Sequence record: MW286156.1
Length of the DNA: 47,915 bases
Reading direction: 5' to 3' (one strand)
DNA from: Escherichia phage vB_EcoS-BECP10
This document shows, piece after piece, positions 844 through 46,098 of this stretch. A program made the translations under genes and the position numbers. The notes beneath the pieces are model-generated. The model had not been told where the DNA came from, did no database searches, and worked only from the letters and a program-made list of their open reading frames with translations. Each line of letters starts with the position of its first letter. The stretch's first letter is position 1.

Positions 844-917
844 CACGAATTGCTAAAGCCCTTCGTGGCTTTTATTGTATATTCATCTCATCGAAACGAA
901 ACTAAGGAATCACGAAG
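839..917 (+). promoter_or_regulatory. Early promoter module 2: IR 841-855, hairpin AAGCCCTTCGTGGCTT, TGTATATT, CATCGAAACGAAA
   Basis: TAGCACGAATTGCTA, then 22 nt containing a GC hairpin, TATATT, conserved leader, RBS AAGGA. Confidence 0.65.
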
Positions 918-2961: not shown

Positions 2962-3037
2962 AATAGCACTAATTGCTAAAGCCCTTCGGGGCTTTTCCTG
3001 TATATTCATCTCATCGAAACGAAATGGAGTTACTAAA
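2962..3037 (+). promoter_or_regulatory. Early promoter module 5: IR 2964-2978, hairpin AAGCCCTTCGGGGCTT, TGTATATT, CATCGAAACGAAA
   Basis: AAATAGCACTAATTGCTAAAG, hairpin, TATATT, conserved leader, RBS GGAG. Confidence 0.65.
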
Positions 3038-3505: not shown

Positions 3506-3586
3506 AATAGCACTTTTTGCTAAAACAAAATCGCAAGGATGCGGTATTATCTTTACATCGAAACGAAAAAGCGAAAGGTAAAAAAA
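3506..3586 (+). promoter_or_regulatory. Early promoter module 6: IR 3508-3522, hairpin CGCAAGGATGCG, TATTAT, CATCGAAACGAAA
   Basis: AATAGCACTTTTTGCTAAAAC, hairpin, TATTAT, leader, RBS AAAGG. Confidence 0.65.
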
Positions 3587-3844: not shown

Positions 3845-3919
3845 AATAGCACAAATTGATAATGAATTATAAGCGGTCGTTGATATAATGGCCGCTCAGA
3901 AACAACACGGAGAGAAGTA
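3845..3919 (+). promoter_or_regulatory. Promoter module 7: degenerate IR TAGCAC-N5-TGATA (3847-3861), hairpin, TGATATAAT
   Basis: AATAGCACAAATTGATAATG, hairpin GCGGTCG..., extended -10-like TGATATAAT, RBS GGAGAG. Confidence 0.5.
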
Positions 3920-7614: not shown

Positions 7615-7691
7615 CTTTGTATCCTCTCGTTTGTTTAGATGGGGTAACTATACCCCATCTTTTGATTTTCGTTTTAGCAATTCGTGCTATT
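7615..7691 (-). promoter_or_regulatory. Promoter module 9 (minus): IR 7675-7689, hairpin overlapping TATAGT, leader variant CATCTAAACAAACGAGAGG
   Basis: Minus-strand reading AAATAGCACGAATTGCTAAAAC then GGGGTATAGTTACCCC and a box-2 variant. Confidence 0.55.
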
Positions 7692-7953
7692 TAGACTTTA
7701 TTTGACTCCACTATATAGCACTCAAGGACAATCTTTTTATCATCAACATTCATCGTGCTGTGATTAAGCCAATCAACAACCGTTCTTAATTCCACTCATT
7801 CATGGTAAATCTCTTTTCCAAGTTCACAATACTGTTGAGATACCAATGGAGATGAAAGGCTTGCAACTAAAATCATCTCTGTAATCATTTTGATTCCTAT
7901 ATCTGTAGCTGACGCATCTCAAAAGCCTCGAAGGGCTTTAACAAAAAGTGATA

Positions 7954-9087
7954 TTATTTGAACATTTCTGGACGGCAGATAAAGCGACCAACCTCACCAA
8001 ACTCTTTATGATAGATGATTACCGCGGCCTGCCTTTGTGAGCGCCATCCACTATTCGCACTATATGCATCTGGTGAACCAATCTGACCATGAACCTCATC
8101 AATACCAAGATTTGTCTCTGTAATCTTCTGTGAATGCCAGTGGCCTGAGTGGGTGTATACATAATCACTTAAACCAAAGTCACGTCGCCAGTCAGTAGCC
8201 ATAACCGAAAGGCGAGTATCAGCTTTACGCATTTGATGCCCGTGAGTGAAACCAAGCATTGTAGAACCAAACTTAGTTACCATCATTGCCGCGGGACTAA
8301 CATCAATACTAACGCGTGGCTCTTCCTCATAAAATGCAGCAAGCGCAGCCCGCAACCAAACCATACCACTTTCATCATGATTACCAGATATAACTTTAAC
8401 CTCTACGTTTTCATGTTTGCTAAGCATGTTTCGAATTGCGCGGCGAACCGCTCGAATGCAAACATAAACAATCTTGGCGTAGCGACTGTCACTGTCCAGG
8501 ATGTGACCACTGGCTGGAGTTTTGGCTTCCAAAGAATCATAATGAAGCAGATCACCTCCTAGCACTAGTACAGCATTCTTTGAATTTGGAGATTTCTGTA
8601 TGGCGTAGTCAAAATAATCGTTCATTACTTTCTCTGCCGTTGCTGTGTCGTAGTTTTCTCCGCACTCATGCTTGTGGGCCATTGCGCCAATGTGAAGGTC
8701 AAATACTGGATACATAGCTAAAGTATCTTCATCAAAATTCAGACCTTCAGATTTAACTGCTTTTTCTTTTGGTAGCTCGCTAGAGAATGCCTCTCGCGCT
8801 TGATTCATCATCTCCTCAAGCTTCTCTGCATCAATAGAGGACTTAACCCATTGCAACTTCACATTGCCATCATTATCAACAAGGCTAGATACACCTTTAA
8901 CCATGTAGCCCTGAGGAATTAGGTTACTCACATCGCGACCGTGACCATCCCCAGCCTTAGCCAACTTGCTGCGACGCAGCTCTACGTTACGAATATTCAT
9001 ACCGTACTTCTCTGCGATTGCCTTGTTAGTCATACCGTTAGCCAGTTCTTGCTTTAACTCTTCGTTGGTGATTTTAGCTATAGCCAT
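7954..9087 (-). CDS. HTH-containing calcineurin-like metallophosphoesterase (377 aa; possible nuclease or phosphatase)
   Basis: Metallophosphoesterase motifs DLHIG, GGDLLHYD, GNHDE, THGH, HSGHWH; N-terminal HTH-like segment MTNKAIAEKYGMNIRNVELRR. Confidence 0.65.
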   Translation of the reverse strand: MAIAKITNEELKQELANGMTNKAIAEKYGMNIRNVELRRSKLAKAGDGHGRDVSNLIPQGYMVKGVSSLVDNDGNVKLQWVKSSIDAEKLEEMMNQAREAFSSELPKEKAVKSEGLNFDEDTLAMYPVFDLHIGAMAHKHECGENYDTATAEKVMNDYFDYAIQKSPNSKNAVLVLGGDLLHYDSLEAKTPASGHILDSDSRYAKIVYVCIRAVRRAIRNMLSKHENVEVKVISGNHDESGMVWLRAALAAFYEEEPRVSIDVSPAAMMVTKFGSTMLGFTHGHQMRKADTRLSVMATDWRRDFGLSDYVYTHSGHWHSQKITETNLGIDEVHGQIGSPDAYSANSGWRSQRQAAVIIYHKEFGEVGRFICRPEMFK

Positions 9088-9170: not shown

Positions 9171-9243
9171 CTGAATCGTCTCTCGTTTCGATGAACACAC
9201 TATACGCCATCCATGGCGATGTGTTTTAACAAAAAGTGCTATT
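9171..9243 (-). promoter_or_regulatory. Promoter module 10 (minus): IR variant 9227-9241, hairpin CGCCATGGATGGCG, TATAGT, TTCATCGAAACGAGAG
   Basis: Minus-strand AAATAGCACTTTTTGTTAAAAC then hairpin, TATAGT and leader box. Confidence 0.6.
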
Positions 9244-9854: not shown

Positions 9855-9929
9855 CTCTTAACCCTCTCATTTGCTGATGTAATTAATATAATCCATCCTT
9901 GTATTTTAGTTTTAACAAAAAGTGCTATT
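9855..9929 (-). promoter_or_regulatory. Promoter module 11 (minus): IR variant 9913-9927 without a clear leader box
   Basis: Minus-strand AAATAGCACTTTTTGTTAAAAC followed by TATATTAAT; no CATCGAAACGA box. Confidence 0.45.
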
Positions 9930-10538: not shown

Positions 10539-10614
10539 TTTGTTTCTCTCTCTTCGTTTCGATGAAGTAACTATATCGCATCCTTGCGAAATCTCTTTAG
10601 CAATTCGTGCTATT
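10539..10614 (-). promoter_or_regulatory. Promoter module 12 (minus): IR 10598-10612, hairpin TCGCAAGGATGCGA, TATAGT, TTCATCGAAACGAAGAG
   Basis: Minus-strand CAAATAGCACGAATTGCTAAAG, 22-nt spacer with hairpin, TATAGT, leader. Confidence 0.65.
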
Positions 10615-10986
10615 TGATAGATAATCTGTAATTGCCAACTTAAACATTTCAAACCCATAACAGATTGCCGCGTAACCTCCTGTTTCTGATACCTTTTCCA
10701 GGAACTCCTTTTGCTCCTTTGAAACCTTGCTATCTGATTTTATTGCTCGCTTAAGCTCTATTGCGGCAAAGCCATTTGGTCCAATCAGTAGAATATCTGA
10801 TACACCCTTAATTACTCCCTCCTGCTTGTCCTTCATTGCTGTGCCGATAGACTTGAGACCTTCATTCTTCACGTGAAAAGCAAATATCTCTGGATGGTTG
10901 TGGCGAACCCAAGCTATTGAATTTATTTGGTGAACAACCTCTTTAGCCTTGTCCGTGCTTGTTTTGTCGTGAAAAACCTTAACCAT
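10597..10986 (-). CDS. VRR-NUC domain nuclease (129 aa)
   Basis: PD-(D/E)XK-type motif DILLIGPNG...AAIELK; sits immediately 3' of the helicase gene. Confidence 0.6.
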   Translation of the reverse strand: MVKVFHDKTSTDKAKEVVHQINSIAWVRHNHPEIFAFHVKNEGLKSIGTAMKDKQEGVIKGVSDILLIGPNGFAAIELKRAIKSDSKVSKEQKEFLEKVSETGGYAAICYGFEMFKLAITDYLSNSTNC

Positions 10987-12929
10987 TAGAACTCCTTATT
11001 AGCAATATTATCGCCACCTTTAGCGGTCTTGCGGTGAGTTACCCTCTTAGGGGCATGGATATACTGCGCATACTCCATAATCTTGCGAGCATTGCGATAT
11101 GCAGCCATATATCGCTTAGCGTTCATGTCGACTACGTGACCTTTAATTCCATTGTTCAACCAGAGCGTTTTACATACTCGATGGTCAGACTCTACAAAGA
11201 AAACCTCATGAGCTTTGAATGTCCCACCCATGCCATCATCAAGGATGTAGTTGTAGATGATTCCTGATTGGTTCTTTGTTAGCCCAACCTTAAAGTCAAC
11301 AACATCAAACCAGTCGTTCTTGCGGTAATGTTTGCCGCTTAAGTTGAGATTTGGATCAAGCAAAGTGCAATCGCAACCCCTACAAATCTTAGCTGCAACG
11401 TCATTCTGAATTCCGCAGCCTTTAACGATAACCTTTCCGGTTCGTGGGTCTTTCTGGTCTTCACATGTGCGACTAACCCAGAAATATTCGCAGCGATTAT
11501 TATTCTCATCAATATGCATGCAACGTCGAGCAAAGAAGCTGTTCTCTGTTCCGCATACTGGACACTGCTTAGTCTCCTTGCCATTACTCTTTCGTAGCTG
11601 ATATTGAGCCTGCTCAAGAATTGGATTGAAGTACAATGATGCCATAGAGTCCATCGTTCCTGCGAAGTCCAGTACCAAATGGTCATTCTTGACCATTCCT
11701 TTATCTTCATGGAGCTTCTTAAGCTTACGCATTCCTCGACCAAGTAGCTGAACCAGGAGTGTAAGGCTACCAATCTTACGCAGAATAACGCTTGTATCCC
11801 ATGTAGGCACATTTACGCCAGTGGTTAGCGCCTGAACCTGAAAGCAATATTTAATCTCCCCGCTAAAGCACTTATCAAGCAACTCCTTGCGCTGCTTCTC
11901 GCCAGTCTTTCCAGTTATAATGCAGAACTTTTCACCTTCAGGAAGGTAACTTGCGGCTTCGTGGCAATGGCGCTCACCTGCGCATGTTACCAGAACTCCA
12001 TTCCTGTTTTTCGCGGCAAGCCATACTTTCTTCATTATCTCCGCTGTCATTGTTCCAGATGCCTGAATCTTTTTATCCATGGCTTCAAGCTGGGCTTTAG
12101 TGTAATCCTGAACACCATCTTCAGATGATGCATCAAACTCTGACAGGTCGTAACCAACGCCATCAGTAGCACCAAAGTTTGTCGGAACCACGGAACCGAA
12201 CTCGACCAGGTAGTTTGTATCGATATTTGTGACCGTCTCACGCCAAAATCCCAACTCCTTTTTGTTTTCAACAACTATTGGCGTAGTTCCACGGAAAGGA
12301 GAACCAGTCAGTCCAAAGATACGGAGATTCTTGCCATACTTAGCACGGCAGCGCTCCATTAAAGTCAGGATGATGACCGTATACTGGCTACGCCCCTTAT
12401 CTGATGCCTGTTGCGCAGTCTCATTGTTATCAATTGCCTCCGCTATGTCCTGGTCATCAATATGGTGACACTCATCAATAGCAACTACCGCAGGACAGAA
12501 ATCGCCAAGTGACTTCTTAAGCCCGCCAACTACTGTGCCCTCAGAGCCAACCACCACAGGGAAATAAGATGATTTTATTCCAAGCCCAGAGCAATAAATG
12601 GAGTTAGGAACCCCGTAATCAGAAATCTCAGAAGCATTCTGGCTAACCAGCTCTGCCTGACGAGCAAGAACAAGCATAGGCAAGCCAAGCTCAGAGCAAC
12701 GCTTAGCAACCATACCAAAAACCAGAGTCTTACCAGCAGAAACTGAAGCCATTGCGATAAATGGATGCTCATAGCGACTAATGCGCTTTGCAATCTCATT
12801 GTACATAACACACTGATAGCTATACGGAACCATACCGTTAGAAGAGGTGAATTTAGTTTGAATCTCTTTAATCTTATCTTCGCCCAATTCTTCAATCTGT
12901 TTTTGTATTGTTTTCAATCGGTTTTCCAT
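10986..12929 (-). CDS. SF2 DEAD/DEAH-box helicase with C-terminal Cys-rich zinc-ribbon region (about 647 aa)
   Basis: Walker A SAGKT, DECHH box, Cys cluster CPVCG...C...C; start placed at internal Met MENRLKT, which is the ATG positioned after a complete IR/-10/leader module. Confidence 0.75.
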   Translation of the reverse strand: MENRLKTIQKQIEELGEDKIKEIQTKFTSSNGMVPYSYQCVMYNEIAKRISRYEHPFIAMASVSAGKTLVFGMVAKRCSELGLPMLVLARQAELVSQNASEISDYGVPNSIYCSGLGIKSSYFPVVVGSEGTVVGGLKKSLGDFCPAVVAIDECHHIDDQDIAEAIDNNETAQQASDKGRSQYTVIILTLMERCRAKYGKNLRIFGLTGSPFRGTTPIVVENKKELGFWRETVTNIDTNYLVEFGSVVPTNFGATDGVGYDLSEFDASSEDGVQDYTKAQLEAMDKKIQASGTMTAEIMKKVWLAAKNRNGVLVTCAGERHCHEAASYLPEGEKFCIITGKTGEKQRKELLDKCFSGEIKYCFQVQALTTGVNVPTWDTSVILRKIGSLTLLVQLLGRGMRKLKKLHEDKGMVKNDHLVLDFAGTMDSMASLYFNPILEQAQYQLRKSNGKETKQCPVCGTENSFFARRCMHIDENNNRCEYFWVSRTCEDQKDPRTGKVIVKGCGIQNDVAAKICRGCDCTLLDPNLNLSGKHYRKNDWFDVVDFKVGLTKNQSGIIYNYILDDGMGGTFKAHEVFFVESDHRVCKTLWLNNGIKGHVVDMNAKRYMAAYRNARKIMEYAQYIHAPKRVTHRKTAKGGDNIANKEF

Positions 12930-13010
12930 AATATCAAATGCCTTTAATGTTCGTTCGATTGACGATATAATAACAGCCATCTAAACCAATGTTTAACAAA
13001 AAGTGCTATT
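12930..13010 (-). promoter_or_regulatory. Promoter module 13 (minus) for the helicase: IR variant 12994-13008, TATTAT, leader CAATCGAACGAAC
   Basis: Minus-strand AATAGCACTTTTTGTTAAAC, about 22 nt, TATTAT, leader, RBS AAAGG; divergent from the 13022 gene. Confidence 0.55.
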
Positions 13011-13021
13011 GAGGTGAGAAA

Positions 13022-13495
13022 ATGGATTCAATTGACAAGCGTACTCTTAATGGTAACAACGGAACAATTCGCACAGAAGACAAGAAGCCGCGTAAGCGTC
13101 CATCAGGTTACTATGTACTAAAGGATGAAGTGAGAGCGGGATTAAGGGCGCGCCTTGAGATTGTATTGGACTTCTACGGCAGCAAGGCCAATCTAGCTAA
13201 GCAGCTAAAGGTTACGCGCCAGGCTGTAGAAGAATGGTGTAAGCGGGGAATGATTTCAGCTCGCGGCGCACAGCTTGCGCATAATCGATATAAGCGAACT
13301 GGAGAGGGGTTCAGGGCTACATTCTGCCGACCTGATTTACAGTTCGACGGTAACGGCAAGCCTCTAACACTGCGATGCAAGAAGCGTCAGATGCTTCGAG
13401 TTGTTACAGAAGCTGAGTTAGCAACCAAGCCGCAGCGTAAATCATGGCGAAAGGTTAAGAAAGAAAGAGAAGAAGCACGAAAAGCTAAAGAGTAA
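13022..13495 (+). CDS. Basic HTH DNA-binding protein (157 aa), candidate transcription regulator
   Basis: HTH-like segment SKANLAKQLKVTRQAVEEWCKRGMIS; Lys/Arg-rich C-terminus; own RBS GAGGTGAG and own terminator. Confidence 0.5.
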   Translation: MDSIDKRTLNGNNGTIRTEDKKPRKRPSGYYVLKDEVRAGLRARLEIVLDFYGSKANLAKQLKVTRQAVEEWCKRGMISARGAQLAHNRYKRTGEGFRATFCRPDLQFDGNGKPLTLRCKKRQMLRVVTEAELATKPQRKSWRKVKKEREEARKAKE

Positions 13496-14475: not shown

Positions 14476-14498
14476 CACCCTCTTCGGAGGGTTTTTTA
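14476..14498 (+). terminator. Intrinsic terminator after the primase gene
   Basis: Hairpin CCCTC-TTCG-GAGGG followed by TTTTTTATT. Confidence 0.6.
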
Positions 14499-14549
14499 TT
14501 GTATTTAATCTGATACAATAGGTTTCATCTATCAAATAGGAGAAATAAC

Positions 14550-17267
14550 ATGGCAATTTATGACGCTGGAACTGCATCGCTTGCAGCTGACGGAACTGTA
14601 ACTGGTGTTGGCACCACGTGGAGGCAACCACTAACGCTAATCCGAGTTGGCGCAACAATGATTTTTAACACCACCCCGACAAGCATTGTTACTATCGCTG
14701 AGATTTTAAGCGATACAGAGATTCGTGTATTCAATGATAAAGGTTTTACTGCGCCAGCTGGGACTCAGTACTCAATCCTTGCTCATGACGGAATTACTGT
14801 CCAAGGTCTTGCTCAGGACGTTGCTGAGACACTTCGTTATTATCAGTCCCGTGAAACAGAGGTTGCAGCGGCAGTTGATGCTTTTAATCAATTTGATTCT
14901 GATTCTTTCCAGCAAAGCGTAAATAATGTCAACATGCAATCTCAGCAAGTTGCTGTTGATGCTGCTCAAGTTTCTTCTGACAAAGATCAGGTATCTTCTG
15001 ATAGGCAGTTAGCTGAAAGTAGCGCTAACTCGGCTTCCTCTTCAGCTACAATAGCAAGCTCTGCTGCGGCTTCTGTGTCATCTGCTCTTGTAGTTGATTT
15101 CTCAAATGGTGGAGAAATAAACTCAAGAACTCAGCCTGCAATTTACTTTAATGACAATCATGTTTCGGTTTATTACTGGTCTGGTAGCGTTCCAAAATCC
15201 ATACCACAAAACTCATCACCACAGTCTACAGGTGGTATTGGAGTTGGTTTTTGGATTCAACAGGATTACACAAGAAGGTTTGAATCAGTATCAGCAATGA
15301 CAAACTCTGCCAGAATTTATGACTTAGAGGTTGTCTATTGTGATTCTTACATTGGTGGTCTTGGTTATGGTGGTGGGTTCTTTGTTTGTAAGCCGGAGTC
15401 ATCGTTATCATATGGATTATCTTCAGGATTGGTTTTTGAATCAAGTACCGGTTATTACTGGGAAAGAATCTGTAGCGGGGAGCTGTCGCCTTGCGAACTT
15501 GGAGCTATTAAGTCATCGACATCAGACTCAACGACACAGATACAGCAAATCCTAGACTCTGGGCTGGCATTAAAGCTTGATAGCGACTACATGGCATCAA
15601 ACCTGGTAATGAGAAATAAATCTTGCTCTATAATTGGTTTTGGCAAGCACAAATCAAGAATAACTCAGCTTAGTTCATCAATTGGCTCTTTAATTGAGGT
15701 ATCTGATTCTTGCTCGCTCATTCATATTGAAGGCATTGCTCTTTACGGCACTGGAGCCCAGCAAGACACGGCGTTTACTGATGGTACTGCTGGGATTTAC
15801 ATCCCTACGCCGACTGGGTTATCAACCAATTACCCATTCAACGCTGGTGCTGACCCTAGAAGGGACTTAACGATAAGAAACACTCACATTGCTGGGTTTG
15901 ATGTTTACGGAATTTTCGTTGCTGCTGGTAACTACTCTCCTGTTCTTGATGATGTTCTTATTCAGCACATAAAAAAAGACGGATTGATTAACGAAACAAC
16001 AGACTTCACATGGAATAACATACAGGTAAACACCTGTGGAAGAAATTGTCTAATACTTAGGAATGCCGGAAACTGTAGGATTGTTGGCGGTAAGTTTATT
16101 TGGTCGGGTTGGTCGGCTTATAATGAGCTTGATGATGCTTATGGCATCCTGATTGATAACTGCCAAAACATCACCATGTCAGCTATAGAGGCGCAGGATT
16201 GCGGTGGTGACGGTGTTAGAATTGTAAACTCTAGAAATGTGGTATTTAATGGATTAAATAGTAACAGGAACAGCATAAACTCAAACTACAGAGATTATAA
16301 CGTTTCGTTTTCAAATAGCTCTGTAAGAATCTATGGTTTTGTTGGGCTTAACTATGTATCTAACAATGGCGATGGAAGGCCAACTTCCGCTGGAAACTTC
16401 AGATTCCTTGACTCAAGATCTGATGTTGTGATCGACGGGGTTGTTGAATCTGGTTACTTTGGCCCAAATTTCTCAGGGGACACTAACTATGTTGCTGAGT
16501 ATTCAGGAAACCTGAAGATAAACGGACTGATAGATAAAAGGAAGACAAGAATTAAGCCAGCAAACGACACTTCAGCTTTTGATGGGGTCTCTAATACACC
16601 AGTATTCGCCGCAGCGGCATCATCAGTTGGGCAGCAATATTGGCTAAGGCTTTCACAGGCAAATAAAGATAAGATTATATGCACTGGATTTGACCCGTCA
16701 CTAGGTTTCACCGCTACATGCAATATATCGCCGACCATAACTGTTGCTGAAGACTTTAACCTTATGGCTATAGGGACTGGTTTTGGAGTTAATAGTAATG
16801 CTCTTTACTTGCAGTATAACGTGATGGCATCAGGAGAACACAGTGTCTCATTATTAATATCAGCATCAGGTGAAACAAGAGTTTTATCAGGTGTGTTGCC
16901 AGTCTCATCAAGAATGGTCAACGGTGGTACTTACAATATTGCTCTTGGTTTTGATGTATCTGGTAAGGTTTGGTGGAGCATCTTAAACCTGAATACTGGA
17001 TTTAGAGTTAGAAGGTCATTTGATTCTCAGTATATAGATATTGATGTCAGACCTATACTAACAACAGCTGGTAACTATGTAACCATGTATTCAGGTCAAG
17101 GCGCTGGTGATGTAGCTTGCTCTGGATATGGCTTTGGTGTTTACGTTGGCGGCTATTCAGATGAGTCTGATTATTGCGCTTCAAGATACTATTCGCTTAA
17201 AGGTGGTGTTGATTTGACAAAACAATCAGTATTTTTGAGTTTGAATGGTGATGTAACGTCACAATAA
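14550..17267 (+). CDS. Tail fibre / tailspike-like protein (905 aa)
   Basis: Large Ser/Gly/Asn-rich ORF with tail-fibre-like N-terminus; RBS AGGAGAAATAAC; bounded by terminators. Confidence 0.5.
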   Translation: MAIYDAGTASLAADGTVTGVGTTWRQPLTLIRVGATMIFNTTPTSIVTIAEILSDTEIRVFNDKGFTAPAGTQYSILAHDGITVQGLAQDVAETLRYYQSRETEVAAAVDAFNQFDSDSFQQSVNNVNMQSQQVAVDAAQVSSDKDQVSSDRQLAESSANSASSSATIASSAAASVSSALVVDFSNGGEINSRTQPAIYFNDNHVSVYYWSGSVPKSIPQNSSPQSTGGIGVGFWIQQDYTRRFESVSAMTNSARIYDLEVVYCDSYIGGLGYGGGFFVCKPESSLSYGLSSGLVFESSTGYYWERICSGELSPCELGAIKSSTSDSTTQIQQILDSGLALKLDSDYMASNLVMRNKSCSIIGFGKHKSRITQLSSSIGSLIEVSDSCSLIHIEGIALYGTGAQQDTAFTDGTAGIYIPTPTGLSTNYPFNAGADPRRDLTIRNTHIAGFDVYGIFVAAGNYSPVLDDVLIQHIKKDGLINETTDFTWNNIQVNTCGRNCLILRNAGNCRIVGGKFIWSGWSAYNELDDAYGILIDNCQNITMSAIEAQDCGGDGVRIVNSRNVVFNGLNSNRNSINSNYRDYNVSFSNSSVRIYGFVGLNYVSNNGDGRPTSAGNFRFLDSRSDVVIDGVVESGYFGPNFSGDTNYVAEYSGNLKINGLIDKRKTRIKPANDTSAFDGVSNTPVFAAAASSVGQQYWLRLSQANKDKIICTGFDPSLGFTATCNISPTITVAEDFNLMAIGTGFGVNSNALYLQYNVMASGEHSVSLLISASGETRVLSGVLPVSSRMVNGGTYNIALGFDVSGKVWWSILNLNTGFRVRRSFDSQYIDIDVRPILTTAGNYVTMYSGQGAGDVACSGYGFGVYVGGYSDESDYCASRYYSLKGGVDLTKQSVFLSLNGDVTSQ

Positions 17268-18419: not shown

Positions 18420-18491
18420 ACTTTTCCTCTCGTTGTCGATGAGGTAACTATACCTCACCGATTTAATGTTGTTTTAGCTATTCGTGCTGTT
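18420..18491 (-). promoter_or_regulatory. Promoter module 14 (minus): IR variant 18475-18489, hairpin over TATAGT, leader CCTCATCGACAACGAGAGG
   Basis: Minus-strand CAGCACGAATAGCTAAAAC then GAGGTATAGTTACCTC and leader box. Confidence 0.55.
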
Positions 18492-20512: not shown

Positions 20513-20648
20513 CTCTCGTTTTTGGGGTTGAATTATTTTCACTCCCGTATTTTGTGGTGCATTTTTTTGCATCAAAAGCAGCACCACTGCTGCCGGTGAG
20601 TGCACTATAACCAATCAGGAAGCATCAGTTTTGATTATTCGTGCTATT
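20513..20648 (-). promoter_or_regulatory. Promoter module 15 (minus): half-degenerate IR 20632-20646 upstream of the Rha-like gene
   Basis: Minus-strand AAATAGCACGAATAATCAAAAC; leader box poorly conserved. Confidence 0.4.
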
Positions 20649-21003: not shown

Positions 21004-21088
21004 ATAGCACGATTTGCTAAAGACTCCAGCAGAAGCCTTTGCTATAGTTACTCCATCGAAACGAAACATACTTACTAAGGAATACAAA
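21004..21088 (+). promoter_or_regulatory. Promoter module 8: IR 21006-21020, TGCTATAGT, CATCGAAACGAAA
   Basis: AAATAGCACGATTTGCTAAAG, about 23-nt spacer, extended -10-like TGCTATAGT, leader, RBS AAGGA. Confidence 0.65.
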
Positions 21089-25300: not shown

Positions 25301-25752
25301 AAATCTCCATTCTCTTCTTGCTTAACGAGCCGAGGCCAGAACAGTTTAACGCGGATTGCTGATAGCTGACTGTTGTTAACTGCGATGATGTAAGGTGTGT
25401 CGTTGTTAATTTCACGACTAACCTGAATCTCTGATGCCGCGCCATCTAGTCCTGCGATGTAATCTTGGGATTGAGTGCCGGCGCGAAACTCAGCTGTCAC
25501 ACCTTCATAGTTGAATGAGTTATCCTGGTTCTGTACTGGAACGTCAGCAAGGTAAACATCCTTAAGTGAGAAGCTAGAATCAACTTCGCCATCAGCTACA
25601 GCCAGTAGCACCTTAATCTTGTTAAGTGAAATCAGGTTATCTTCTTGCTCTACAGGCGTGTGCGGCTTCTTGCTACCACCCTTGCTTCCATAAATCTTTG
25701 GCAAATCGGCCATATCATATAACCTCGTTGTTTGTTTAACCATTTGTGCCAT
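22327..25752 (-). CDS. Central tail fibre / host specificity protein (lambda J-like, 1141 aa)
   Basis: Size, position after I/K/L/M, and conserved J-family blocks. Confidence 0.8.
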   Translation of the reverse strand: MAQMVKQTTRLYDMADLPKIYGSKGGSKKPHTPVEQEDNLISLNKIKVLLAVADGEVDSSFSLKDVYLADVPVQNQDNSFNYEGVTAEFRAGTQSQDYIAGLDGAASEIQVSREINNDTPYIIAVNNSQLSAIRVKLFWPRLVKQEENGDLNGTTCEYAIDLSVNGAAYTEYTRGVANGKTTTGYDRSIRVNLPAEFSSALVRIRKLTPDSTSSTLVNGMQITTYQEVIDAKFRYPLTALVYVEFSSDLFPNGIPTIAIKKKWKLIRVPTNYNPETRTYSGAWNGTFKMAWSDNPAWVLYDLVVSQRYGLDQRELGVEIDKWGLYEAAQFCDQMVPDGKGGMEPRYTCNVVIQQKVEAYQLIRDICSIFRGLTFYDGEQIGIVVDRPRQPSYVFTNDNVVDGLFNRTFSSDKSLYTTANVQFDDEQNNYQQDVEPVFDLEATRRFGYNPVDLTAIGCVRRSEANRRGRWLLKTNLRSETVTFTTGLEGMIPMIGDVIAVNDQAWSSNYTLNLSGRIVEATGLQVFVPFAIDADPGDRILINKPDGSPEYRTIASVSADKLTLELNTAFSFTPQPDTVFAIDKQNLALQQYVVTGIQKANTDGEDSFQYSITAVQYDPNKYDEIDYGVNIDDRPTSIVDPDRILPPENITVTSYSKVVQGLSVETMVIGYDKVQYAKTYNVQWRKNNGNWINVPETANTEVDIEGIYAGIYDVRVRAVTDQKSVSAWSDITTVSLTGKIGEPSALPVITASDDEVFGIRVKWGFPTDSADTAYTELQQVPDNGDGTYNPESASLLTLVPYPQYEYWHTTLPAGNVRWYRARIIDRIGNVSPWTDFVRGMASDDVSAIIGDIKVDIENSDGYKYLLQNAIDANTDIQNQAEAIIENALANDTDVRVMKRENGARKAEYRQAVSLIADETQARVDSLTQLKAQIDDEIVGQITTIETALATETEARATADTQLSARLGDNEAALNQKLDSYATVEGVGVQYGVKLGLKYNGVEYGAGMSMELTGSGGNVRSQFIFDANRFAISNGISSGSGQWSLPFVVENNQVFIQSAVIQDGSITNAKIGNRIQSNNYVAGSAGWAIDKSGFAELSNATVRGSLYANNGNFAFNGTNNTVVINNNGITVNLPNGGRVVVGVW

Positions 25753-28120: not shown

Positions 28121-28184
28121 CTCTTTTTTAAGTTTTTTAATTGTAAACCTTCCTTGGTATTTCTGTTTAGCAATTAGTGCTATT
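28121..28184 (-). promoter_or_regulatory. Promoter module 16 (minus) inside the tail operon: IR 28168-28182
   Basis: Minus-strand AAATAGCACTAATTGCTAAAC; no CATCGAAACGA leader. Confidence 0.5.
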
Positions 28185-31973: not shown

Positions 31974-32285
31974 GACCTTTGCGCGCTGGCCAGCCAGAGC
32001 TTGCATGTAAGCATTAGTCAGTGCCAGAACGGATGAGGGGAACAGAGATACCAGCTCTTCGATGTTCTCGTCGTTAAATTCTTCTTCAAGGTTCCAGCCG
32101 CTGCAAATCTCTTTAACAAAGTCAAAATCCTTAAGGCCTTCGGTCTGGAATACTTCCTGAATCTCCTTAGCCTTACGGTGCTTGGCATTGAAGATAACCT
32201 CAGCTTCCTCGCCGTTGATCATCTGGAACTTAACCGGAAGCTTGAAATCAGGGAGCGCGCCTAATTTTAATTTGAATTTCGCCAT
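31971..32285 (-). CDS. Tail assembly chaperone (lambda G-like, 104 aa)
   Basis: Position between major tail protein and tape measure; acidic. Confidence 0.55.
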   Translation of the reverse strand: MAKFKLKLGALPDFKLPVKFQMINGEEAEVIFNAKHRKAKEIQEVFQTEGLKDFDFVKEICSGWNLEEEFNDENIEELVSLFPSSVLALTNAYMQALAGQRAKV

Positions 32286-32329
32286 TTAAATAATCCTCTC
32301 ATGTTTGTTTGAGTTGAAATTATAACATA

Positions 32330-32352
32330 AAAAAAGCCCCTGTGAAGGGGCC
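32330..32352 (-). terminator. Intrinsic terminator or attenuator after the major tail protein gene
   Basis: Minus-strand hairpin GGCCCC-TTCACA-GGGGCT followed by TTTTTTT. Confidence 0.55.
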
Positions 32353-32358
32353 TGATTG

Positions 32359-33009
32359 TTATGCAGCCAGGAAGCTATAGCGTCCACGCACCGTAATTGC
32401 TACGGATACAGTTTCGATCTCGTTAACGGAAACGTTTGGAGTTTCGTTAAACGCGATAGTGCCAGTCCAAAGTCGAACTTCGCCAGCTTTAGGAACGTAT
32501 GCACGAATCGCAATCAGCGCTCCAGACTCGTCGTAGTTACGGAGTACCGGGTAGATCGGGTTGGTGAACTCGTGAGCAAACGTATAGGTCGTGTTTACCG
32601 CTGACTTATATGTTGGAATCTGCTGCTCACGGTCATCAGCCAGGCACTGATAAGTAACGAACTGCTGCTCTCCGCCATCAGTTGAAACGTCTTGAACACA
32701 AGGCATTTCATACCAGGTAAGAACCTTGTAGATCGATGCCGTTCCGCCAGCTGGGAACTGAAGCGGGTCAGTAGTGTCAATGCCTTCAACGGTAATTGTT
32801 GTAGCCGTTGATGTAACTACTCGCAACTGTTTCTCTGAAAGTTTAGACCATGAAGATGACTCAACAACAATGAAGTCACCAGCTGCGAAAGTTGAAGCGT
32901 CATCTACCGTCATAACTGGCTGAGCTGCGTTAGTGATAGCCGTTACGGCTACCGATTCAGATTTAGAGCCTTGCAAAAAAATTTGTGTGCCATTGCTGAG
33001 ATGGGCCAT
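32359..33009 (-). CDS. Major tail protein (216 aa)
   Basis: Position upstream of G/GT; followed by terminator; Thr/Val-rich. Confidence 0.55.
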   Translation of the reverse strand: MAHLSNGTQIFLQGSKSESVAVTAITNAAQPVMTVDDASTFAAGDFIVVESSSWSKLSEKQLRVVTSTATTITVEGIDTTDPLQFPAGGTASIYKVLTWYEMPCVQDVSTDGGEQQFVTYQCLADDREQQIPTYKSAVNTTYTFAHEFTNPIYPVLRNYDESGALIAIRAYVPKAGEVRLWTGTIAFNETPNVSVNEIETVSVAITVRGRYSFLAA

Positions 33010-34894: not shown

Positions 34895-34954
34895 TCTTTC
34901 CTCCTGTTTATTCTATAAATGAATTATATACTTTATGATTCATTTAGTACAGAC

Positions 34955-34979
34955 GTAAAAAAGCCCTCCGAAGAGGGCT
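34955..34979 (-). terminator. Intrinsic terminator after the putative major capsid gene
   Basis: Minus-strand hairpin AGCCCTC-TTCG-GAGGGCT followed by TTTTTTACG. Confidence 0.65.
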
Positions 34980-36858: not shown

Positions 36859-36912
36859 TTCATTTACTCCATATCGGTTAATAGTCTTAATGATTGTAAC
36901 AGAATTTTGGCA

Positions 36913-36936
36913 ATAAAAAACCCGCCGAAGCGGGTT
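36913..36936 (-). terminator. Intrinsic terminator
   Basis: Minus-strand hairpin CCCGC-TTCG-GCGGG followed by TTTTTTATTG. Confidence 0.65.
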
Positions 36937-37449: not shown

Positions 37450-38571
37450 TTATTTCTCCTTATTGGATTTAGCTTTAGCAATTCGAGCGCGCGGATCAAT
37501 AAGCGTCAACTCTTCTTTGCTGTCAGATTTATCAGAGGCTATGGTAGCCTTACGAACTTCAGCCATTTTATCAGATTCTTTGGCAATGTCGAACGCTGCG
37601 TCAATATACGCGTCAGATTTCTCAGAAACATCCAGGCCAGAGACTTCTTTAACGTAAGCAACTTTGATTGCTTTAGCATCCAGGCCGTCACATTTAACGC
37701 CAGCTTCTGCGGCAACTGCAACCAGAGTTGCCAGCTCATCAGCGTCAGCTTTAGCTTTGGCTACGGCAGCTTCGATTTCGGCAGGAATGCCATCAACTTT
37801 AGCTTTCAGTGCATCGCGCTCAGCTTCCAGAGTGTCAGCTTTGGCTTTAGCCTGCTCCGCATCTGCCTTAACAGCTTCGATGTGGTTAGCAACTTCCGGG
37901 GCGATTTCGAACTCCTGTTCGCCATCGAGTTTAATCTTAATCATCAATTTATCCTCTTTATTTGATTGAACGGTATCAGTATACGGGTTTTCCTGTTCCG
38001 CGTCCAGATTGAGTTTAGCAATACCTGCGCGACCTTTATATACGAGTGCGATATGATTAACAACGATATTCGTCTGTAGCGCATCAAAGCGTACCCAATC
38101 AGCAGGAATCTCATCCTGGCTTGCGTACTCTCCATCAAGCTTGTACTCACCCGTTTCATTACTACCCCAGCCAGGAGACTCAATGTCAACAGTGTTGTAG
38201 CCAACAGAGAGCTCACCAGCAACGCCAGACTTGGCCTTCTCAATTGCTTCCTTGTCGTAAACGGTAAGAGGAACAATCACTGCCGAGTCCTGACGCATTG
38301 CTGACCCAGATACAGAACCAACAACCAACTCTTTAGCATTTTCAGAGTTTACAACCACGTGACCAAGAGTAAGCGGCTTACCCTGGTAACTTTGCAGCGA
38401 ATCGGCTTTAAAAACCTCTGAAGCCGGACGGAACTCTCGGCGCTCTGAACCATCTGGCATATAGTAGGTTTGTACACCTACGCGAGCAACCACTGGTGTG
38501 TCCACGAGAAAACCGTTCTCATCGAAACGGGCTTTTACCTTGGCGCTATCATAACGCATTTTACTCTTCAT
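37450..38571 (-). CDS. Putative scaffolding protein, possibly fused to a prohead protease (373 aa)
   Basis: Ala/Lys/Glu-rich coiled-coil-like C-terminal half; position between head morphogenesis and capsid genes. Confidence 0.4.
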   Translation of the reverse strand: MKSKMRYDSAKVKARFDENGFLVDTPVVARVGVQTYYMPDGSERREFRPASEVFKADSLQSYQGKPLTLGHVVVNSENAKELVVGSVSGSAMRQDSAVIVPLTVYDKEAIEKAKSGVAGELSVGYNTVDIESPGWGSNETGEYKLDGEYASQDEIPADWVRFDALQTNIVVNHIALVYKGRAGIAKLNLDAEQENPYTDTVQSNKEDKLMIKIKLDGEQEFEIAPEVANHIEAVKADAEQAKAKADTLEAERDALKAKVDGIPAEIEAAVAKAKADADELATLVAVAAEAGVKCDGLDAKAIKVAYVKEVSGLDVSEKSDAYIDAAFDIAKESDKMAEVRKATIASDKSDSKEELTLIDPRARIAKAKSNKEK

Positions 38572-40608: not shown

Positions 40609-42180
40609 TTACTTAACGCCAGCTAGCCTCATTAAGCGGGCTCTCGGATCGTCACTCAAGTTCAATTCACAGTTGATGGCCATTGTTGTCGTATCCACAA
40701 TGTCATCATGGGGATGAGAATCGTCAGCAGTGAACGCCGAGAACTCGGTTAATAGCGAGGTAAGCCATGGCGCAGAGTCAGGCAGAACTACGTTACCAGC
40801 TTTAATCTGTGGCAGTGCGCTCATCACCCTGGTTAACTTATCTGTATCTGGAACGAAAGGCTCGATAGGAGTTCGCATTACCCGACCCGCCGACTGGATA
40901 AGTCCTATTCCAGACGCTTTCTTCTCGATAATAACCTTGCGCAATATACCATCTGTCTTACTAGCTGCTCTATGCTTACTCTCAAAGTCCAGAAGAGTTT
41001 GCTCAAGTTCAGGTGCTTCCCATTTACCCCTTACCATATCCAGAAGATAAAGCCTGTTATCTTTGCGCCCCCATAGCTGGAATACTGAGTAGTCGCTATA
41101 ACTCTTAGTAGTCATGGCAGTATCAGCCGTAATGAAACGGTAGTCATACTTGACTGGCGGCCTGTTATTCTCATCGAGGCGAGCAAACCAATCTACGTTG
41201 ATCAGGTTTCCACCCAGAGCTACTGGAGATTGTTGGTACTGGCTTAGGAATGTGTACGGATCTGAGTCCCACATTGCCATCAAGTCATGCACAGATTCCT
41301 TCTGCGGGAAGTAGCTGTAATACTTAACACCATCTCGCTCGACGTACTCGGATGAAAGCACGTCCTTCTCGAACTGCTCACGAATCCAGTCAGGGAGTTC
41401 ATTCACATATTCTTCAGTGACCAGCGCCGGTATCTTCACTACATCAAAGTCGATACCCATACCACCAGAAGTCATGAACCACGTTGAATCCTGAGTATGA
41501 AGCCTTTGCTGAATTGACAGAATTGGCGTAGCTTTACCTTTAACGCTACTCGCCCTACGTGAGCGAATGGTGTTTTTGAGAAGAGTGTGCACGGCCTCTC
41601 GCCTGACTTTGCTGAACATATCATCCGCTTTGTCTACATCATCAAGCATCAAACAGCCGCTATAGTTATCTGTAATATATCCACCGCGAGCGCCTGTAAT
41701 CTGACCGCCAATTGCTTTTGATATTGATTCAAACTTAACCTTACCAGAATCATCAAGAACCTGAATCTCATCATCCTTACATGTGCCAAACTTGCAGGGC
41801 CACAACTCCTGGAATTCTGTCGATTTGATAAGGTCACGAACCCGTTTAGAGTTACGCTTCACGAGGCTATCTGAGAATGACAGGCTAAGATTGCGAACCT
41901 TCTTTAGTTTAAGCATTGAGTATACTGGGAAGTGAATGGATGTAATCTCGGTTTTTCCGGCCCCGGGAGCTACGTTAATGATTGTATCTCTGCGTTGACC
42001 GCTAATAACCTCATCGATGATTCTACAGAGGTACTTATGGTGCCAGTTAGGAATATAACGCTCAGATTGACTTATTTGAAACCACACCCTTAAGAAACCC
42101 TCGAAGCTATGAGTTGATAGTGCCTTTATAGCTAGCTTTTCTGGGTATGTTAAGTCTTCCCATACAATTATTTCACTCAT
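40609..42180 (-). CDS. Terminase large subunit
   Basis: Walker A-like INVAPGAGKTE, ATPase and nuclease-like regions; start taken at MSEIIVWE. Confidence 0.8.
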   Translation of the reverse strand: MSEIIVWEDLTYPEKLAIKALSTHSFEGFLRVWFQISQSERYIPNWHHKYLCRIIDEVISGQRRDTIINVAPGAGKTEITSIHFPVYSMLKLKKVRNLSLSFSDSLVKRNSKRVRDLIKSTEFQELWPCKFGTCKDDEIQVLDDSGKVKFESISKAIGGQITGARGGYITDNYSGCLMLDDVDKADDMFSKVRREAVHTLLKNTIRSRRASSVKGKATPILSIQQRLHTQDSTWFMTSGGMGIDFDVVKIPALVTEEYVNELPDWIREQFEKDVLSSEYVERDGVKYYSYFPQKESVHDLMAMWDSDPYTFLSQYQQSPVALGGNLINVDWFARLDENNRPPVKYDYRFITADTAMTTKSYSDYSVFQLWGRKDNRLYLLDMVRGKWEAPELEQTLLDFESKHRAASKTDGILRKVIIEKKASGIGLIQSAGRVMRTPIEPFVPDTDKLTRVMSALPQIKAGNVVLPDSAPWLTSLLTEFSAFTADDSHPHDDIVDTTTMAINCELNLSDDPRARLMRLAGVK

Positions 42181-42688
42181 GATTGCAGAACTCCCCATGT
42201 ATACTCTCCCTCATTGATGCCGCCACCTTTGCTGCTTCTTCTTTTTTCTTAAACCAACCTCCAAACATCATTTTTCCATTTATTTTCACATATGCAATAT
42301 ACTCATTCCTTCTCTTTGAGTAGCTAACACCTTTGTAGCCAGATTTATTATTGCTCATCATAGACTTATTCATTCCGTTTTGGCTAAGCGATGCATCCCT
42401 AAGATTAGAAATCCTATCGTCTGATGGGTCACGATTTATGTGGTCAACCGCGCCAACTGGCTCAAAGCCATAATACAAATAAAATGCAATCCTTGAGCTC
42501 TTGTATATCTTCCCTTGTATCTGTACTTGATATCGACCGCTAGCTTTGTGCAAAGTCCCAGCCTCGGATCCGATTATGGTTTTGCTACTTACTTTTGATG
42601 TCCACGTTAGCTTTCCCGTTTCAGGATTGTAACTCAGAATTCCTCTAAGAAAATCCAGAGGCGGCATAGGCTTCGCTCTATCTAACAT
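42173..42688 (-). CDS. HNH endonuclease with AP2 DNA-binding domain (homing-endonuclease-like)
   Basis: HNH motif VDHINRDPSDDRISNLR and AP2-like GYKGVSYSKRRNEYIAYVKINGK; between the terminase subunit genes. Confidence 0.7.
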   Translation of the reverse strand: MLDRAKPMPPLDFLRGILSYNPETGKLTWTSKVSSKTIIGSEAGTLHKASGRYQVQIQGKIYKSSRIAFYLYYGFEPVGAVDHINRDPSDDRISNLRDASLSQNGMNKSMMSNNKSGYKGVSYSKRRNEYIAYVKINGKMMFGGWFKKKEEAAKVAASMRESIHGEFCNHE

Positions 42689-42733
42689 AAAAAACCCCAC
42701 TCGTTTATTGAATGGGGTAATTATATCAACATA

Positions 42734-43249
42734 TCAAAGTTTATCAACTATTGATTCAAGCGCAGCCTTCATAGCTTCCTCATCGTTCACTACTGCATTG
42801 GAAGCATTGTTGATGTTAACCTCTTGCGGCTTATCGATGCCTAAGTCCTTGCCAATCAGTCCAGGGTTGACGATGTTGTTAACGCCAAGCTGATACTTCT
42901 GCTCAAAGATTACCGAATCCACAAACTCCATCACCTCATCAAATCCAGGCGAAGAGCGCCATTTACTGATGGCATTATGACCAACGCCGCAGAAAAGTTG
43001 GAATCCAGTTATCGTAAATATTCGTGGCTTATGAACAAGGTTTTCCGTTACAACACCCTGAAAGCTCGCCGTTTCAATGGCCTTAATCGCTTGCTCTTCA
43101 GCCCAGCTGAAATACCTTACAGCCATGTCGAATACCTGCTCGGGAGTGTATCTGTGGTTAATCTTAAGATTGGCAATGTCGCCATACTTCTTATTGTAAA
43201 GCTCCTTGAAGTTACCAATCTTCTGGTGAATTTTTTTCTCTTCTGACAT
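42734..43249 (-). CDS. Putative terminase small subunit (171 aa)
   Basis: Position immediately upstream of HNH and large terminase; RBS AGGAGGAATATC. Confidence 0.45.
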   Translation of the reverse strand: MSEEKKIHQKIGNFKELYNKKYGDIANLKINHRYTPEQVFDMAVRYFSWAEEQAIKAIETASFQGVVTENLVHKPRIFTITGFQLFCGVGHNAISKWRSSPGFDEVMEFVDSVIFEQKYQLGVNNIVNPGLIGKDLGIDKPQEVNINNASNAVVNDEEAMKAALESIVDKL

Positions 43250-43294
43250 TTGATATTCCTCCTGTTTTAAAAGTCATTGTACCATGACTATGGA

Positions 43295-43321
43295 CGAAAA
43301 AAAGCCCTCACAAGGAGGGCA
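43295..43321 (-). terminator. Intrinsic terminator
   Basis: Minus-strand hairpin GCCCTCC-TTGT-GAGGGC followed by TTTTTTTCG. Confidence 0.6.
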
Positions 43322-43348
43322 AAGTACTGCATTGCGAGATGACCAATC

Positions 43349-43550: not shown

Positions 43551-43626
43551 TGGTGTTCCGCACTGGACTCGAACCAGTAACTGAGACTTAGGAGGTCTCT
43601 GCGTTATCCTGTTACGCCAGCAGAAC
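43551..43626 (-). tRNA. tRNA-Arg (anticodon CCU, reads AGG), 76 nt with encoded CCA
   Basis: Manual cloverleaf: acceptor GTTCTGC/GCGGAAC, D-stem GCGT/ACGC with GG in loop, anticodon stem GAGAC/GTCTC with loop CTCCTAA, T-arm ACTGG-TTCGAGT-CCAGT, discriminator A, CCA. Confidence 0.8.
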
Positions 43627-44898: not shown

Positions 44899-44975
44899 TT
44901 AATCTTTCCTCGTCTCATTTCGATAAAGTAATGGTAACGCATCCTTGCGATGGATGTTTAGCAATTTGTGCTATT
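44899..44975 (-). promoter_or_regulatory. Promoter module 17 (minus): IR 44959-44973, hairpin CGCAAGGATGCG, leader variant TTTATCGAAATGAGACGAGG
   Basis: Minus-strand CAAATAGCACAAATTGCTAAAC then hairpin and box-2 variant. Confidence 0.6.
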
Positions 44976-46023: not shown

Positions 46024-46098
46024 GGTTATTTCCTCTTTGTTGTTGATAGGGTAATCATAGCTGACTACCCAATTTATTGTTTAGCAATTTGTGCTATA
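46024..46098 (-). promoter_or_regulatory. Promoter module 18 (minus): IR 46082-46096, hairpin over TATGAT, leader CCCTATCAACAACAAAGAGG
   Basis: Minus-strand AATATAGCACAAATTGCTAAAC then GGGTA...TACCC hairpin and box-2 variant. Confidence 0.6.

Follow-up and report, generated by a model that had tools for sequence, protein, structure and literature searches.

Genomic Context and Structure of the Locus

Region 840–917 on the plus strand of the Escherichia phage vB_EcoS-BECP10 genome (MW286156.1; the entire stretch of 47,915 nt was analysed and is referred to below as the window) precedes gene 918–1220 and carries a closely packed series of promoter-like elements. It begins with a 20-nt upstream repeat, ATAGCACGAATTGCTAAAGC (840–859), which is the published 21-nt direct repeat of T1 and TLS and fits the marbox consensus. 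A GC hairpin (AAAGCC-cttcgt-GGCTTT, 855–872) follows and leads into TATTGTATAT; by its sequence, it resembles a terminator of the transcript arriving from upstream, the -10 region providing the T tract. The -10 hexamer TATATT (878–883) is located 18 bp after the repeat, and the box CATCGAAACGA (889–899) covers positions -1 to +10 relative to a predicted start at A890. This +1 was predicted from the spacing to the -10 hexamer together with the Y-1/R+1 rule; the seventh base after the -10 in a pyrimidine-purine context is the classical sigma-70 start. The span 884–917, described in the initial annotation as a conserved leader box, comprises the discriminator (884–889) and the entire predicted 5' UTR of gene 918–1220 (890–917, 28 nt, unstructured), with the Shine-Dalgarno (SD) sequence AAGGA at ~904–908 and the ATG at 918.

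The two termini of the window are joined by a 99-nt exact overlap; the window thus represents a complete, circularly assembled genome of ~47.8 kb, in which positions 5 and 47821 carry one and the same module. The first 6 kb matched Enterobacteria phage vB_EcoS_Rogue1 (Rogue1) at 95% identity and other members of Rogunavirus (Drexlerviridae, the T1 family) at 90–93%. T1-like phages are frequently encountered, serve in studies of therapy and biocontrol, and have earned notoriety as laboratory contaminants. Their promoters are essentially undefined, with only a handful of sigma-70 sites given in published annotations; the TLS reannotation (PMC11447400) reports only three sigma-70-like promoters. 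The promoters discussed here are marked in none of the relatives' deposited annotations, and a literature search retrieved no transcription-start data for any Drexlerviridae.

Occurrence of the Box and Promoter Modules in the Window

With at most one mismatch allowed, CATCGAAACGA gave 9 matches in the window versus 0.67 ± 0.82 expected from 100 dinucleotide shuffles, of which 0/100 reached 9. Seven copies are exact, four on the plus strand (889–899, 3012–3022, 3556–3566, and 21054–21064) and three on the minus strand (9183–9193, 10554–10564, and 47217–47227). The two one-mismatch copies, both on the plus strand, are CATCGAAACAA at 2050–2060 and a match at 38520–38530, which lies inside a coding region with no -10 and is probably due to chance. 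Eight of the nine matches are intergenic, just 5' of a gene and on the same strand as that gene. All copies except the one at 38520 are placed exactly 5 nt after a hexamer of the TATAGT/TATATT type, followed by C and then A, which puts the A of cATCG, preceded by C, seventh after the -10 hexamer in every real copy. The recurrence of a box behind the -10, reported in the initial annotation, was hence confirmed with a fixed 5-nt spacing; the positions given there were within ~15 nt of the true ones and required small corrections. The variant boxes that it named were also found, at 55–65 on the plus strand (CATCAACAACG; the same copy appears again at 47871–47881) and, on the minus strand, at 46038–46048 (tATCAACAACA) and 18431–18441 (CATCGACAACG).

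The box makes up one third of a cassette, a larger unit not described in the initial annotation, which has the marbox-like repeat as its upstream part and is reused ~18 times in the window. The -10 hexamer follows the repeat by 17–19 bp in 18 window modules, and the distance is 18 bp in 12 of the 16 anchored modules and 17 or 19 bp in the others. On the plus strand, besides the module at 840, exact boxes occur in modules 2963–3022 (repeat 2963–2982, -10 3001–3006), 3507–3566 (repeat 3507–3526, hairpin 3530–3545, -10 3545–3550), and 21004–21064 (repeat 21004–21023, -10 21043–21048, 19-bp spacing). The one-mismatch copy CATCGAAACAA belongs to module 2000–2060 (repeat 2000–2019, -10 2039–2044), and the variant CATCAACAACG to module 5–65 (repeat 5–24, -10 44–49), which recurs at 47821–47881. 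Module 1802–1862 (repeat 1802–1821, terminator-like hairpin 1825–1842, -10 1841–1846) has a divergent start, cCATCAAGAAG, and the module upstream of a helicase gene (3846–3905; repeat 3846–3865, -10 TATAAT 3884–3889) has no box (cTCAGAAACAA).

On the minus strand, exact boxes are found in modules 9183–9242 (repeat 9223–9242, -10 9199–9204) and 10554–10613 (repeat 10594–10613, -10 10570–10575). Variant forms occur in module 7631–7690 (repeat 7671–7690, -10 7647–7652 inside the hairpin GGGGTA/TACCCC, box CATCTAAACAA at 7631–7641), module 9869–9928 (repeat 9909–9928, -10 9885–9890, start CATCAGCAAAT), module 12951–13009 upstream of helicase gene 10986–12980 (repeat 12990–13009, -10 12967–12972, cAATCGAACGA), and module 18431–18490 (repeat 18471–18490, -10 18447–18452, CATCGACAACG). 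They also occur in modules 44915–44974 (repeat 44955–44974, -10 TACCAT 44931–44936, tATCGAAATGA) and 46038–46097 (repeat 46078–46097, -10 TATGAT 46054–46059, tATCAACAACA). The tail-region module 28124–28183 (repeat 28164–28183, -10 TACAAT 28140–28145) has no box (ACTTAAAAAA), and the same holds for a degenerate module upstream of a Rha-like gene (20588–20647; repeat with 3 mismatches, -10 TATAGT 20604–20609).

Two promoters carry a box and no repeat. The left-end promoter (47217–47238, minus strand), which serves genes 46641–47183 and 46081–46641, combines the exact box at 47217–47227 with TGcTATAGT (47233–47238) and has an A-rich stretch instead of the upstream repeat. The promoter of a Cro-like regulator gene (12966–12988, plus strand) consists of TATAAT (12966–12971), aacagc, and the variant box CATCTAAACCA (12978–12988). 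Since the box is present at such repeat-less promoters, it goes with the -10 and the start and not with the repeat; repeat-bearing promoters with no box are those at 3846, 28183, and 20647. In modules 2000 and 21004, where the hexamer is 19 rather than 18 bp away from the repeat, the box shifts with the hexamer, and between the box and the start codon there are 21–35 nt; the box is thus tied to the promoter core and not to the ribosome-binding site. Six modules have both the repeat and an exact box; among them, the box is 100% identical, and the flanks show 38% (20-nt spacer), 37% (discriminator), and 34% (+11 to +22) identity, values near the background. The conservation of the box is independent of its flanks, in agreement with the unusual degree of conservation pointed out in the initial annotation.

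Another arrangement was observed upstream of gene 42173–42688 (possibly terS), which is preceded by TTGATA, 16 bp, TGaTATAAT, tACCCC, A(+1)TTCAATAAACGAGT, GGGGT, and T6; the terminator stem 5' of this gene is present only in read-through RNA.

Promoter Cassette in the Drexlerviridae

The elements of the cassette are arranged in the order of a 20-nt repeat, 18 bp (17–19), the -10, 6 nt, the box, a short A/C-rich unstructured leader, the SD sequence, and the ATG. The consensus of the repeat in the window is ATAGCACnnnTTG(C/T)TAAAnn (20 nt), and its cassette form is aATAGCACnnWTTGYTAAAa. The -10 hexamers are TATAGT, TATATT, or TATTAT, often with G-14, and the 6-nt discriminator is made up of five bases and C. 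The transcribed part of the box is ATCGAAACGA, written A(+1)TCGAAACGA in the cassette formula; 10–25 more bases then separate it from the SD sequence and the ATG, and the resulting leader of 21–35 nt is A/C-rich and U-poor.

The same layout was detected across different subfamilies, in T1, TLS, and Rtp, as well as in metagenomic relatives fetched by the repeat alone. The family set comprised 165 non-identical modules from 43 records. Within it, the -10 element showed frequencies of 0.86 for T-12, 1.0 for A-11, 0.84 for T-10, and 1.0 for T-7, the values for A-11 and T-7 being imposed by selection and anchoring. G-14 was present in 75% of the modules; the motif tttGnTAtaaT is clear in T1 and TLS, and a full TG occurs only in some window modules. 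The start region was characterized by C-1 (70%), A+1 (79%), T+2 (56%), and C+3 (51%), and the leaders by ~70% A at +5 to +7 and only 5–14% T at +4 to +12 (12.5% over +1 to +14). The commonest 12-mer, CATCGAAACGAA, was found in 20 of the 165 modules, behind unrelated spacers and in different genera. A pronounced box is confined to this genus and Rtp, T1 and TLS showing only a weak form (cAt..aaa), so its exact sequence may be largely a lineage habit. A comparison of orthologues within the genus was uninformative as a measure of constraint, the modules being 97–100% identical.

A canonical sigma-70 scan flagged almost none of the modules, and canonical -35/-10 pairs were not enriched in the early regions relative to shuffles (24 vs. 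29 ± 5 and 17 vs. 15 ± 3), in agreement with the small number of sigma-70-like promoters in the TLS reannotation. The TTGCTA of the repeat was considered as a -35 element and rejected, both for this lack of enrichment and for its distance of 22 bp to the -10. Judged by its sequence, the cassette core resembles the extended -10 type, with the repeat occupying the -35 position. The cassette rule (repeat, 18 bp, -10, 6 nt, and A+1/box) yields ~18 predicted transcription units in the window and transfers to the whole family.

Upstream Repeat and Its Resemblance to the Marbox

The repeat has been described as a 21-nt direct repeat, aaATAGCACnnnTTGnTAAAA, in TLS, T1, Rtp, and Rogue1, located ~76 nt 5' of start codons and oriented with transcription (PMC11447400). 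In that 2024 TLS reannotation, a stoperator, an enhancer, and an UP element are suggested and the function of the repeat is left open; the repeat is the same as here, and no mention of a -10 at +38, a start-site box, or a match to the marbox was seen in the text. A role as an UP element was rejected because the conserved core contains GC (GCAC and TTGC) and is position-specific. A palindromic dimer operator (TAGCA-N5-TGCTA) was likewise rejected, since the palindrome is broken in 32% of the copies (TTGTTA).

The marbox pattern of the Grainger laboratory is GCANNWWNTGNNAAA (GCAnnWWnTGnnAAA; PMC12052159). In the window, this pattern had 16 zero-mismatch sites versus 1.06 expected, and 15 of the 16 are the repeats. 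An older marbox consensus, which reportedly reads AYnGCACnnWnnRYYAAAY (AYNGCACNNWNNRYYAAAY), matched 19 window sites with at most one mismatch versus 1.12 expected. The positions left free in the module search pattern vary as the W, W, and Y of the marbox (A/T in 98% at position 9, A/T in 96% at position 10, and C/T in 96% at position 14 of the 165 modules); the last position of the consensus (Y19) disagrees, with A in 58% of the repeats. The marRAB marbox, read from MG1655, shares 16 of 20 bases with the repeat.

The geometry is also similar. The repeat is oriented forward in all modules, with GCAC distal and AAA proximal, spans -50 to -31 from the predicted +1, and is separated from the -10 by 18 bp in 130 of the 165 modules. 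A class II marbox promoter is defined by a forward marbox overlapping the -35 (PMC12052159). The micF promoter has a class II site, centred near -41, in which exactly 18 bp separate the marbox ACAGCACTGAATGTCAAAAC from the -10 TAGAAT. A point against the marbox reading is that marbox-like strings are frequent by chance in E. coli, numbering 17,730 at ≤2 mismatches (PMC12052159). The fumC promoter was taken as a further check of the geometry; it contains a marbox and has no start site by which the -10 could be fixed.

These similarities suggest that a class II activator site of the MarA/SoxS/Rob type, formed by the repeat, would stand in for the -35 and be read most simply by the host's own Rob, MarA, or SoxS. 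We tentatively propose, with confidence a little short of even, that most of the early and DNA-metabolism promoters of the T1 family may be wired to these host stress regulators through a near-consensus class II marbox in place of the -35; the start-site box and the hairpins bracketing the -10 would then make it a mobile cassette of three parts. On the other hand, cells that are not under stress contain little MarA or SoxS, and their Rob is for the most part inactive; T1-like phages nevertheless grow well in the laboratory. A literature search found no paper connecting the marbox, Rob, or SoxS with T1-like phages.

A phage-encoded MarA homologue was searched for and rejected. The tblastn and phmmer searches with MarA gave nothing below E = 1, and the Pfam analysis of 36 non-structural proteins revealed no HTH_18 or HTH_AraC domain at E ≤ 0.05. 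The first left-end gene product, DUF7174, gave a moderate alpha/beta model with no PDB match. For the second left-end protein (46084–46641), made from the repeat-less left-end promoter, the model was winged-helix-like and weakly matched MukE, a JetABC complex chain, forkhead, and MarR-type proteins; on the basis of this model, the protein could be the best phage candidate if the repeat binder is not a host protein.

If the marbox reading is true, phage expression would follow, or take advantage of, an abundant regulator already present in the host and, for example, bile-salt, oxidant, or antibiotic signals, and phage development would be linked to the regulators of host stress and antibiotic resistance.

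Hairpins and Homology Breakpoints

GC hairpins beside or around the -10, already noticed in the initial annotation, were present. Among the 165 modules, two nearly exclusive kinds were distinguished (stems ≥5 bp): spacer hairpins between the repeat and the -10 (45/165) and hairpins bracketing the -10 (55/165), in which the 5' arm lies in the spacer and the 3' arm is the discriminator, mostly ending at -1. In these modules, a promoter and a stem-loop are joined in one conserved unit, as in PeSL-like cassettes. The window contains several terminator-like spacer hairpins with the T-rich -10 region as the tail (855–872, 1825–1842, and 3530–3545). The mean longest Watson-Crick stem was 4.31, compared with 3.50 ± 0.07 when spacers and discriminators were paired across different modules; therefore, the arms of the bracketing hairpins covary despite their differing sequences. 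Transcripts started at the box do not include the 5' arm of the bracketing hairpin, which can only form in upstream read-through RNA or in extruded DNA.

Some modules also lie at positions where the similarity between relatives breaks off. The 99% identity with Rogue1 stops at window position 2083, ~20 nt past the box of module 2000, and returns at 3910, just after module 3846; between these points, the window has ~1.8 kb and three further modules versus a single small gene in Rogue1. In comparison with C119 and JK06, 8 of the 33 homology breakpoints are located within 12 nt of a module, while modules make up 3.9% of the sequence (binomial P ~3e-5, a figure that is inflated by intergenic bias because the background is the whole sequence). 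This is the pattern described for the PeSL promoter-terminator cassettes of T4-like phages. The whole cassette may also act as a terminator joined to a promoter and offer a patch of homology for the exchange of gene cassettes.

Probable Function of the Predicted Start-Site Box

The reading that we favour, and consider rather probable from the sequence data, is that the box comprises the start site and the first transcribed bases of a sigma-70-type promoter cassette, which T1-family phages use again and again in their early and DNA-metabolism regions, and is not a structured RNA or a separate regulator site. Transcription would start at the A of the box, and the box would be retained for fixing the start site (C-1/A+1, 7 nt after the -10), for an initial transcribed sequence favouring fast promoter clearance, and for a 5' end suited to an open, stable, and well-translated leader. 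In strong coliphage promoters of the T5 N25 kind, the transcribed region governs promoter clearance and not an RNA function. The initial annotation had argued that promoter function alone would not demand this much conservation in transcribed sequence; this argument is weak in view of the invariant spacing to the -10, the leader length of 21–35 nt, and the T5-type precedents. Of its suggestions, a common transcript start agrees with the fixed distance to the -10, which places the box in the predicted transcript (+1 to +10); the analysis gave no positive evidence for an RNA-level role, which keeps a minor probability.

Several forms of RNA function were considered. Folding of the leaders from +1 to +43 (43 nt) gave a mean MFE of -1.4 kcal/mol and a mean z of +0.48 versus shuffles, with the box unpaired; no structure or covariation was seen across the leader copies, and the TCG/CGA mini-stem is lost in variants, so a folded RNA element was rejected. 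The Rfam search of the window returned a tRNA at 43554–43626 as the sole match, which leaves no known RNA family for the box. An rRNA-pairing enhancer of the T7 gene 10 epsilon type was rejected, as the longest 16S complement is 6 nt (16S position 960), the modal value for 500 shuffled boxes. A sigma-70 pause element of the lambda PR' type was rejected as well: ATCGAAACGA has a single T (+2), and no xAxxxT hexamer is possible.

An RNA-level element of another kind, in which a single-stranded 5'-terminal AUCGAAACGA is recognised as RNA for the sake of mRNA stability or translation, appears rather unlikely. The stability route could consist of a poor substrate for RppH or RNase E, or of U depletion. 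This explanation fits the predicted position of the box at the extreme 5' end of the RNA, the open and U-poor leaders, and the occurrence of AACGAG(A)GG next to the SD sequence even where there is no -10 (for example at the J gene, at the genes at 19793, 45274, and 2415, and as a second copy within the 47227 leader). However, the box is anchored to the -10 and not to the SD sequence or ATG, structure, covariation, and an Rfam match are lacking, the 16S complement has the length usual among shuffled boxes, and no candidate RNA-binding factor was found. The box could also owe its identity to copying rather than function, if cassettes are duplicated or exchanged by recombination and the exact box is only a homology patch beyond what A+1 needs. 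Modules 840 and 2963 are in fact near-identical over ~65 nt, paralogous gene cassettes are present, and homology blocks end at modules and sometimes at the box itself (JK06 at 901 and Rogue1 at 2083). Nevertheless, that pair is the sole one resembling a recent duplicate, the exact-box modules are only 34–38% identical in the spacer, discriminator, and downstream sequence, the same 12-mer stands behind unrelated spacers in different genera, and conversion tracts of 11 nt are implausible, which makes copying an improbable explanation.

A further possibility is that the box is an operator, that is, a DNA site over +1 through which a phage regulator would shut off or time the promoters, with the winged-helix-like protein (46084–46641) and the Cro-like protein (13022–13495) as candidates. 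Repressors typically sit over the start site, TCG-AAA-CGA forms a weak dyad in the box, a variant box occurs in the promoter of the regulator gene itself, and candidates with DNA-binding folds are encoded by the phage. We regard this explanation as highly improbable, because the dyad is only 3+3 bp and is lost in the variants CATCAACAACGA and CATCGACAACGA, and because conservation across the family is graded and composition-like (A-rich and T-poor) rather than site-like. Taken as the start-site and initial-transcribed part of the cassette, the box is a compact unstructured start region of the strong-promoter kind that may suit expression design and may mark cassette shuffling.

Comparison with Known Promoter Systems

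Among host RNA polymerase promoters of coliphages, the T5 early promoters, e.g., N25, are reportedly conserved at ~+1 to +20, and it is in this extension of conservation into the initial transcribed region that the T1-type cassette would resemble them; the initial transcribed sequences differ. The class II marbox promoters, such as micF, share with the phage cassette the consensus, the forward orientation, the 18 bp to the -10, and the lack of a real -35. The cassette differs from the host marbox promoters in that it occurs in a virulent phage, in ~18 copies far nearer to the consensus than the degenerate host sites, and in that host marbox promoters have no conserved start-site box.

The PeSL of T4-like phages are short conserved cassettes of a promoter and a stem-loop that serves as a terminator or attenuator; they are found next to small orphan genes of plastic regions and at gene-replacement junctions between close relatives (PMC2839356, PMC4122927). 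The T1-type cassette is similar in that it unites a promoter with a stem-loop in a short conserved unit, in its position beside small orphan genes of plastic regions, and in that some homology breakpoints between relatives fall at the cassettes. PeSL have near-consensus -35 and -10 elements and an AT-rich upstream region, whereas in the T1-type cassette a marbox-like repeat replaces the -35, the stem-loop is found either in the spacer 5' of the -10 or around the -10 itself, and the start-site box is conserved. As a whole, the cassette appears to combine a promoter of the class II activator-dependent type, with putative binding by the activator, and a cassette of the PeSL-like type.

Genome Ends and Left-End Operon

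The window is a complete genome of ~47.8 kb from a circularised assembly. Positions 1-99 are identical to 47817-47915, a 99-nt exact terminal overlap, and the features at 5-65 and 47821-47881 therefore represent a single locus. Upstream of the left-end promoter lies a non-coding stretch of ~300 nt (47240-47560(-)). This stretch, with its runs rich in TATA and its short direct repeats (gtagacgcacgtagacgcctgtacac), is a possible pac or origin region. In the left-end operon, the second gene (46084-46641(-)) encodes a product of 186 aa, for which no Pfam family was found. Its AlphaFold model (pLDDT 83) gave weak matches of the winged-helix type, namely to MukE, a JetABC complex chain, forkhead, and MarR, and residues 60-125 were similar to the C-terminal end of a phage helicase PHROG; an early DNA-binding protein is possible.

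Gene-Block Duplication, tRNA, and Ribosome-Binding Context

The two-gene blocks at 1246-1805 and 2415-2959 are diverged tandem duplicates with ~74% nucleotide identity over ~300 nt, and their upstream contexts also match. The pair shows that cassettes have been duplicated inside the early region. One tRNA gene was detected at 43554-43626(-) (Rfam RF00005, 57.6 bits), in agreement with the single Arg tRNA reported for related phages. At genes with no promoter immediately 5', the Shine-Dalgarno (SD) context contained a recurrent string, AACGAG(A)GG or ACGAAGAG, found upstream of the starts at 47183, 25713, 20503, 45390, and 2415. This recurrence suggests a favoured ribosome-binding context, which would overlap the 3' half of the box, the conserved sequence at the predicted start site.

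Late-Region Cassettes and Other Promoters

A different cassette precedes the late-region genes, comprising a strong GC terminator hairpin plus T run, followed 10-25 nt later by TATAAT or TACAAT, often with TG. Neither the marbox-like upstream repeat nor the box was present at these window sites (~14480-14550(+), 31990-32360(-), 34900-34960(-), 36860-36930(-), and 43250-43330(-)). The gene at 42173-42688, possibly terS, has a near-consensus promoter upstream (42688-42747(-)), composed of TTGATA, a 16 bp spacer, and TGaTATAAT. Its discriminator, ACCCC, is complementary to GGGGT at ~+15, which is followed by T6; the resulting terminator serves only RNA arriving from upstream and is absent from RNA initiated at this promoter.

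Some repeat copies lack a -10 at +38, namely those at 25733-25752(-) and 7935-7954(-) in the window, at 8362 and 25021 in T1, and at 24908 in TLS. They lie either immediately 5' of an SD (that of the large J-like tail gene or, in T1, that of terS) or at the point where the 377-aa exonuclease gene has its stop codon. Such copies cannot function as ordinary promoters of this type.

Hairpins Around the -10 and in the Spacer

Across the family, modules occur in which the -10 is flanked by an inverted repeat. The 5' arm of this inverted repeat lies in the spacer, and the discriminator makes up the 3' arm, which ends at -1; window examples are 7631-7690(-), 18431-18490(-), and 46038-46097(-). The arms covary between modules, with a mean stem of 4.31 vs. 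3.50 ± 0.07 in partner-swapped controls. Formation of this hairpin requires either read-through RNA or extruded DNA. At 3530-3545, 10576-10589, ~44940-44952, and 9893-9905, the spacer contains hairpins that read (T)CGCAAGGATGCG or ACAAGGATGG. These are similar to ACARGGAUG, the SELEX motif of CsrA, the loop carrying GGA. Alternatively, the A-18 T-17 G-16 common to them could belong to an extended -10 of the TRTGn type.
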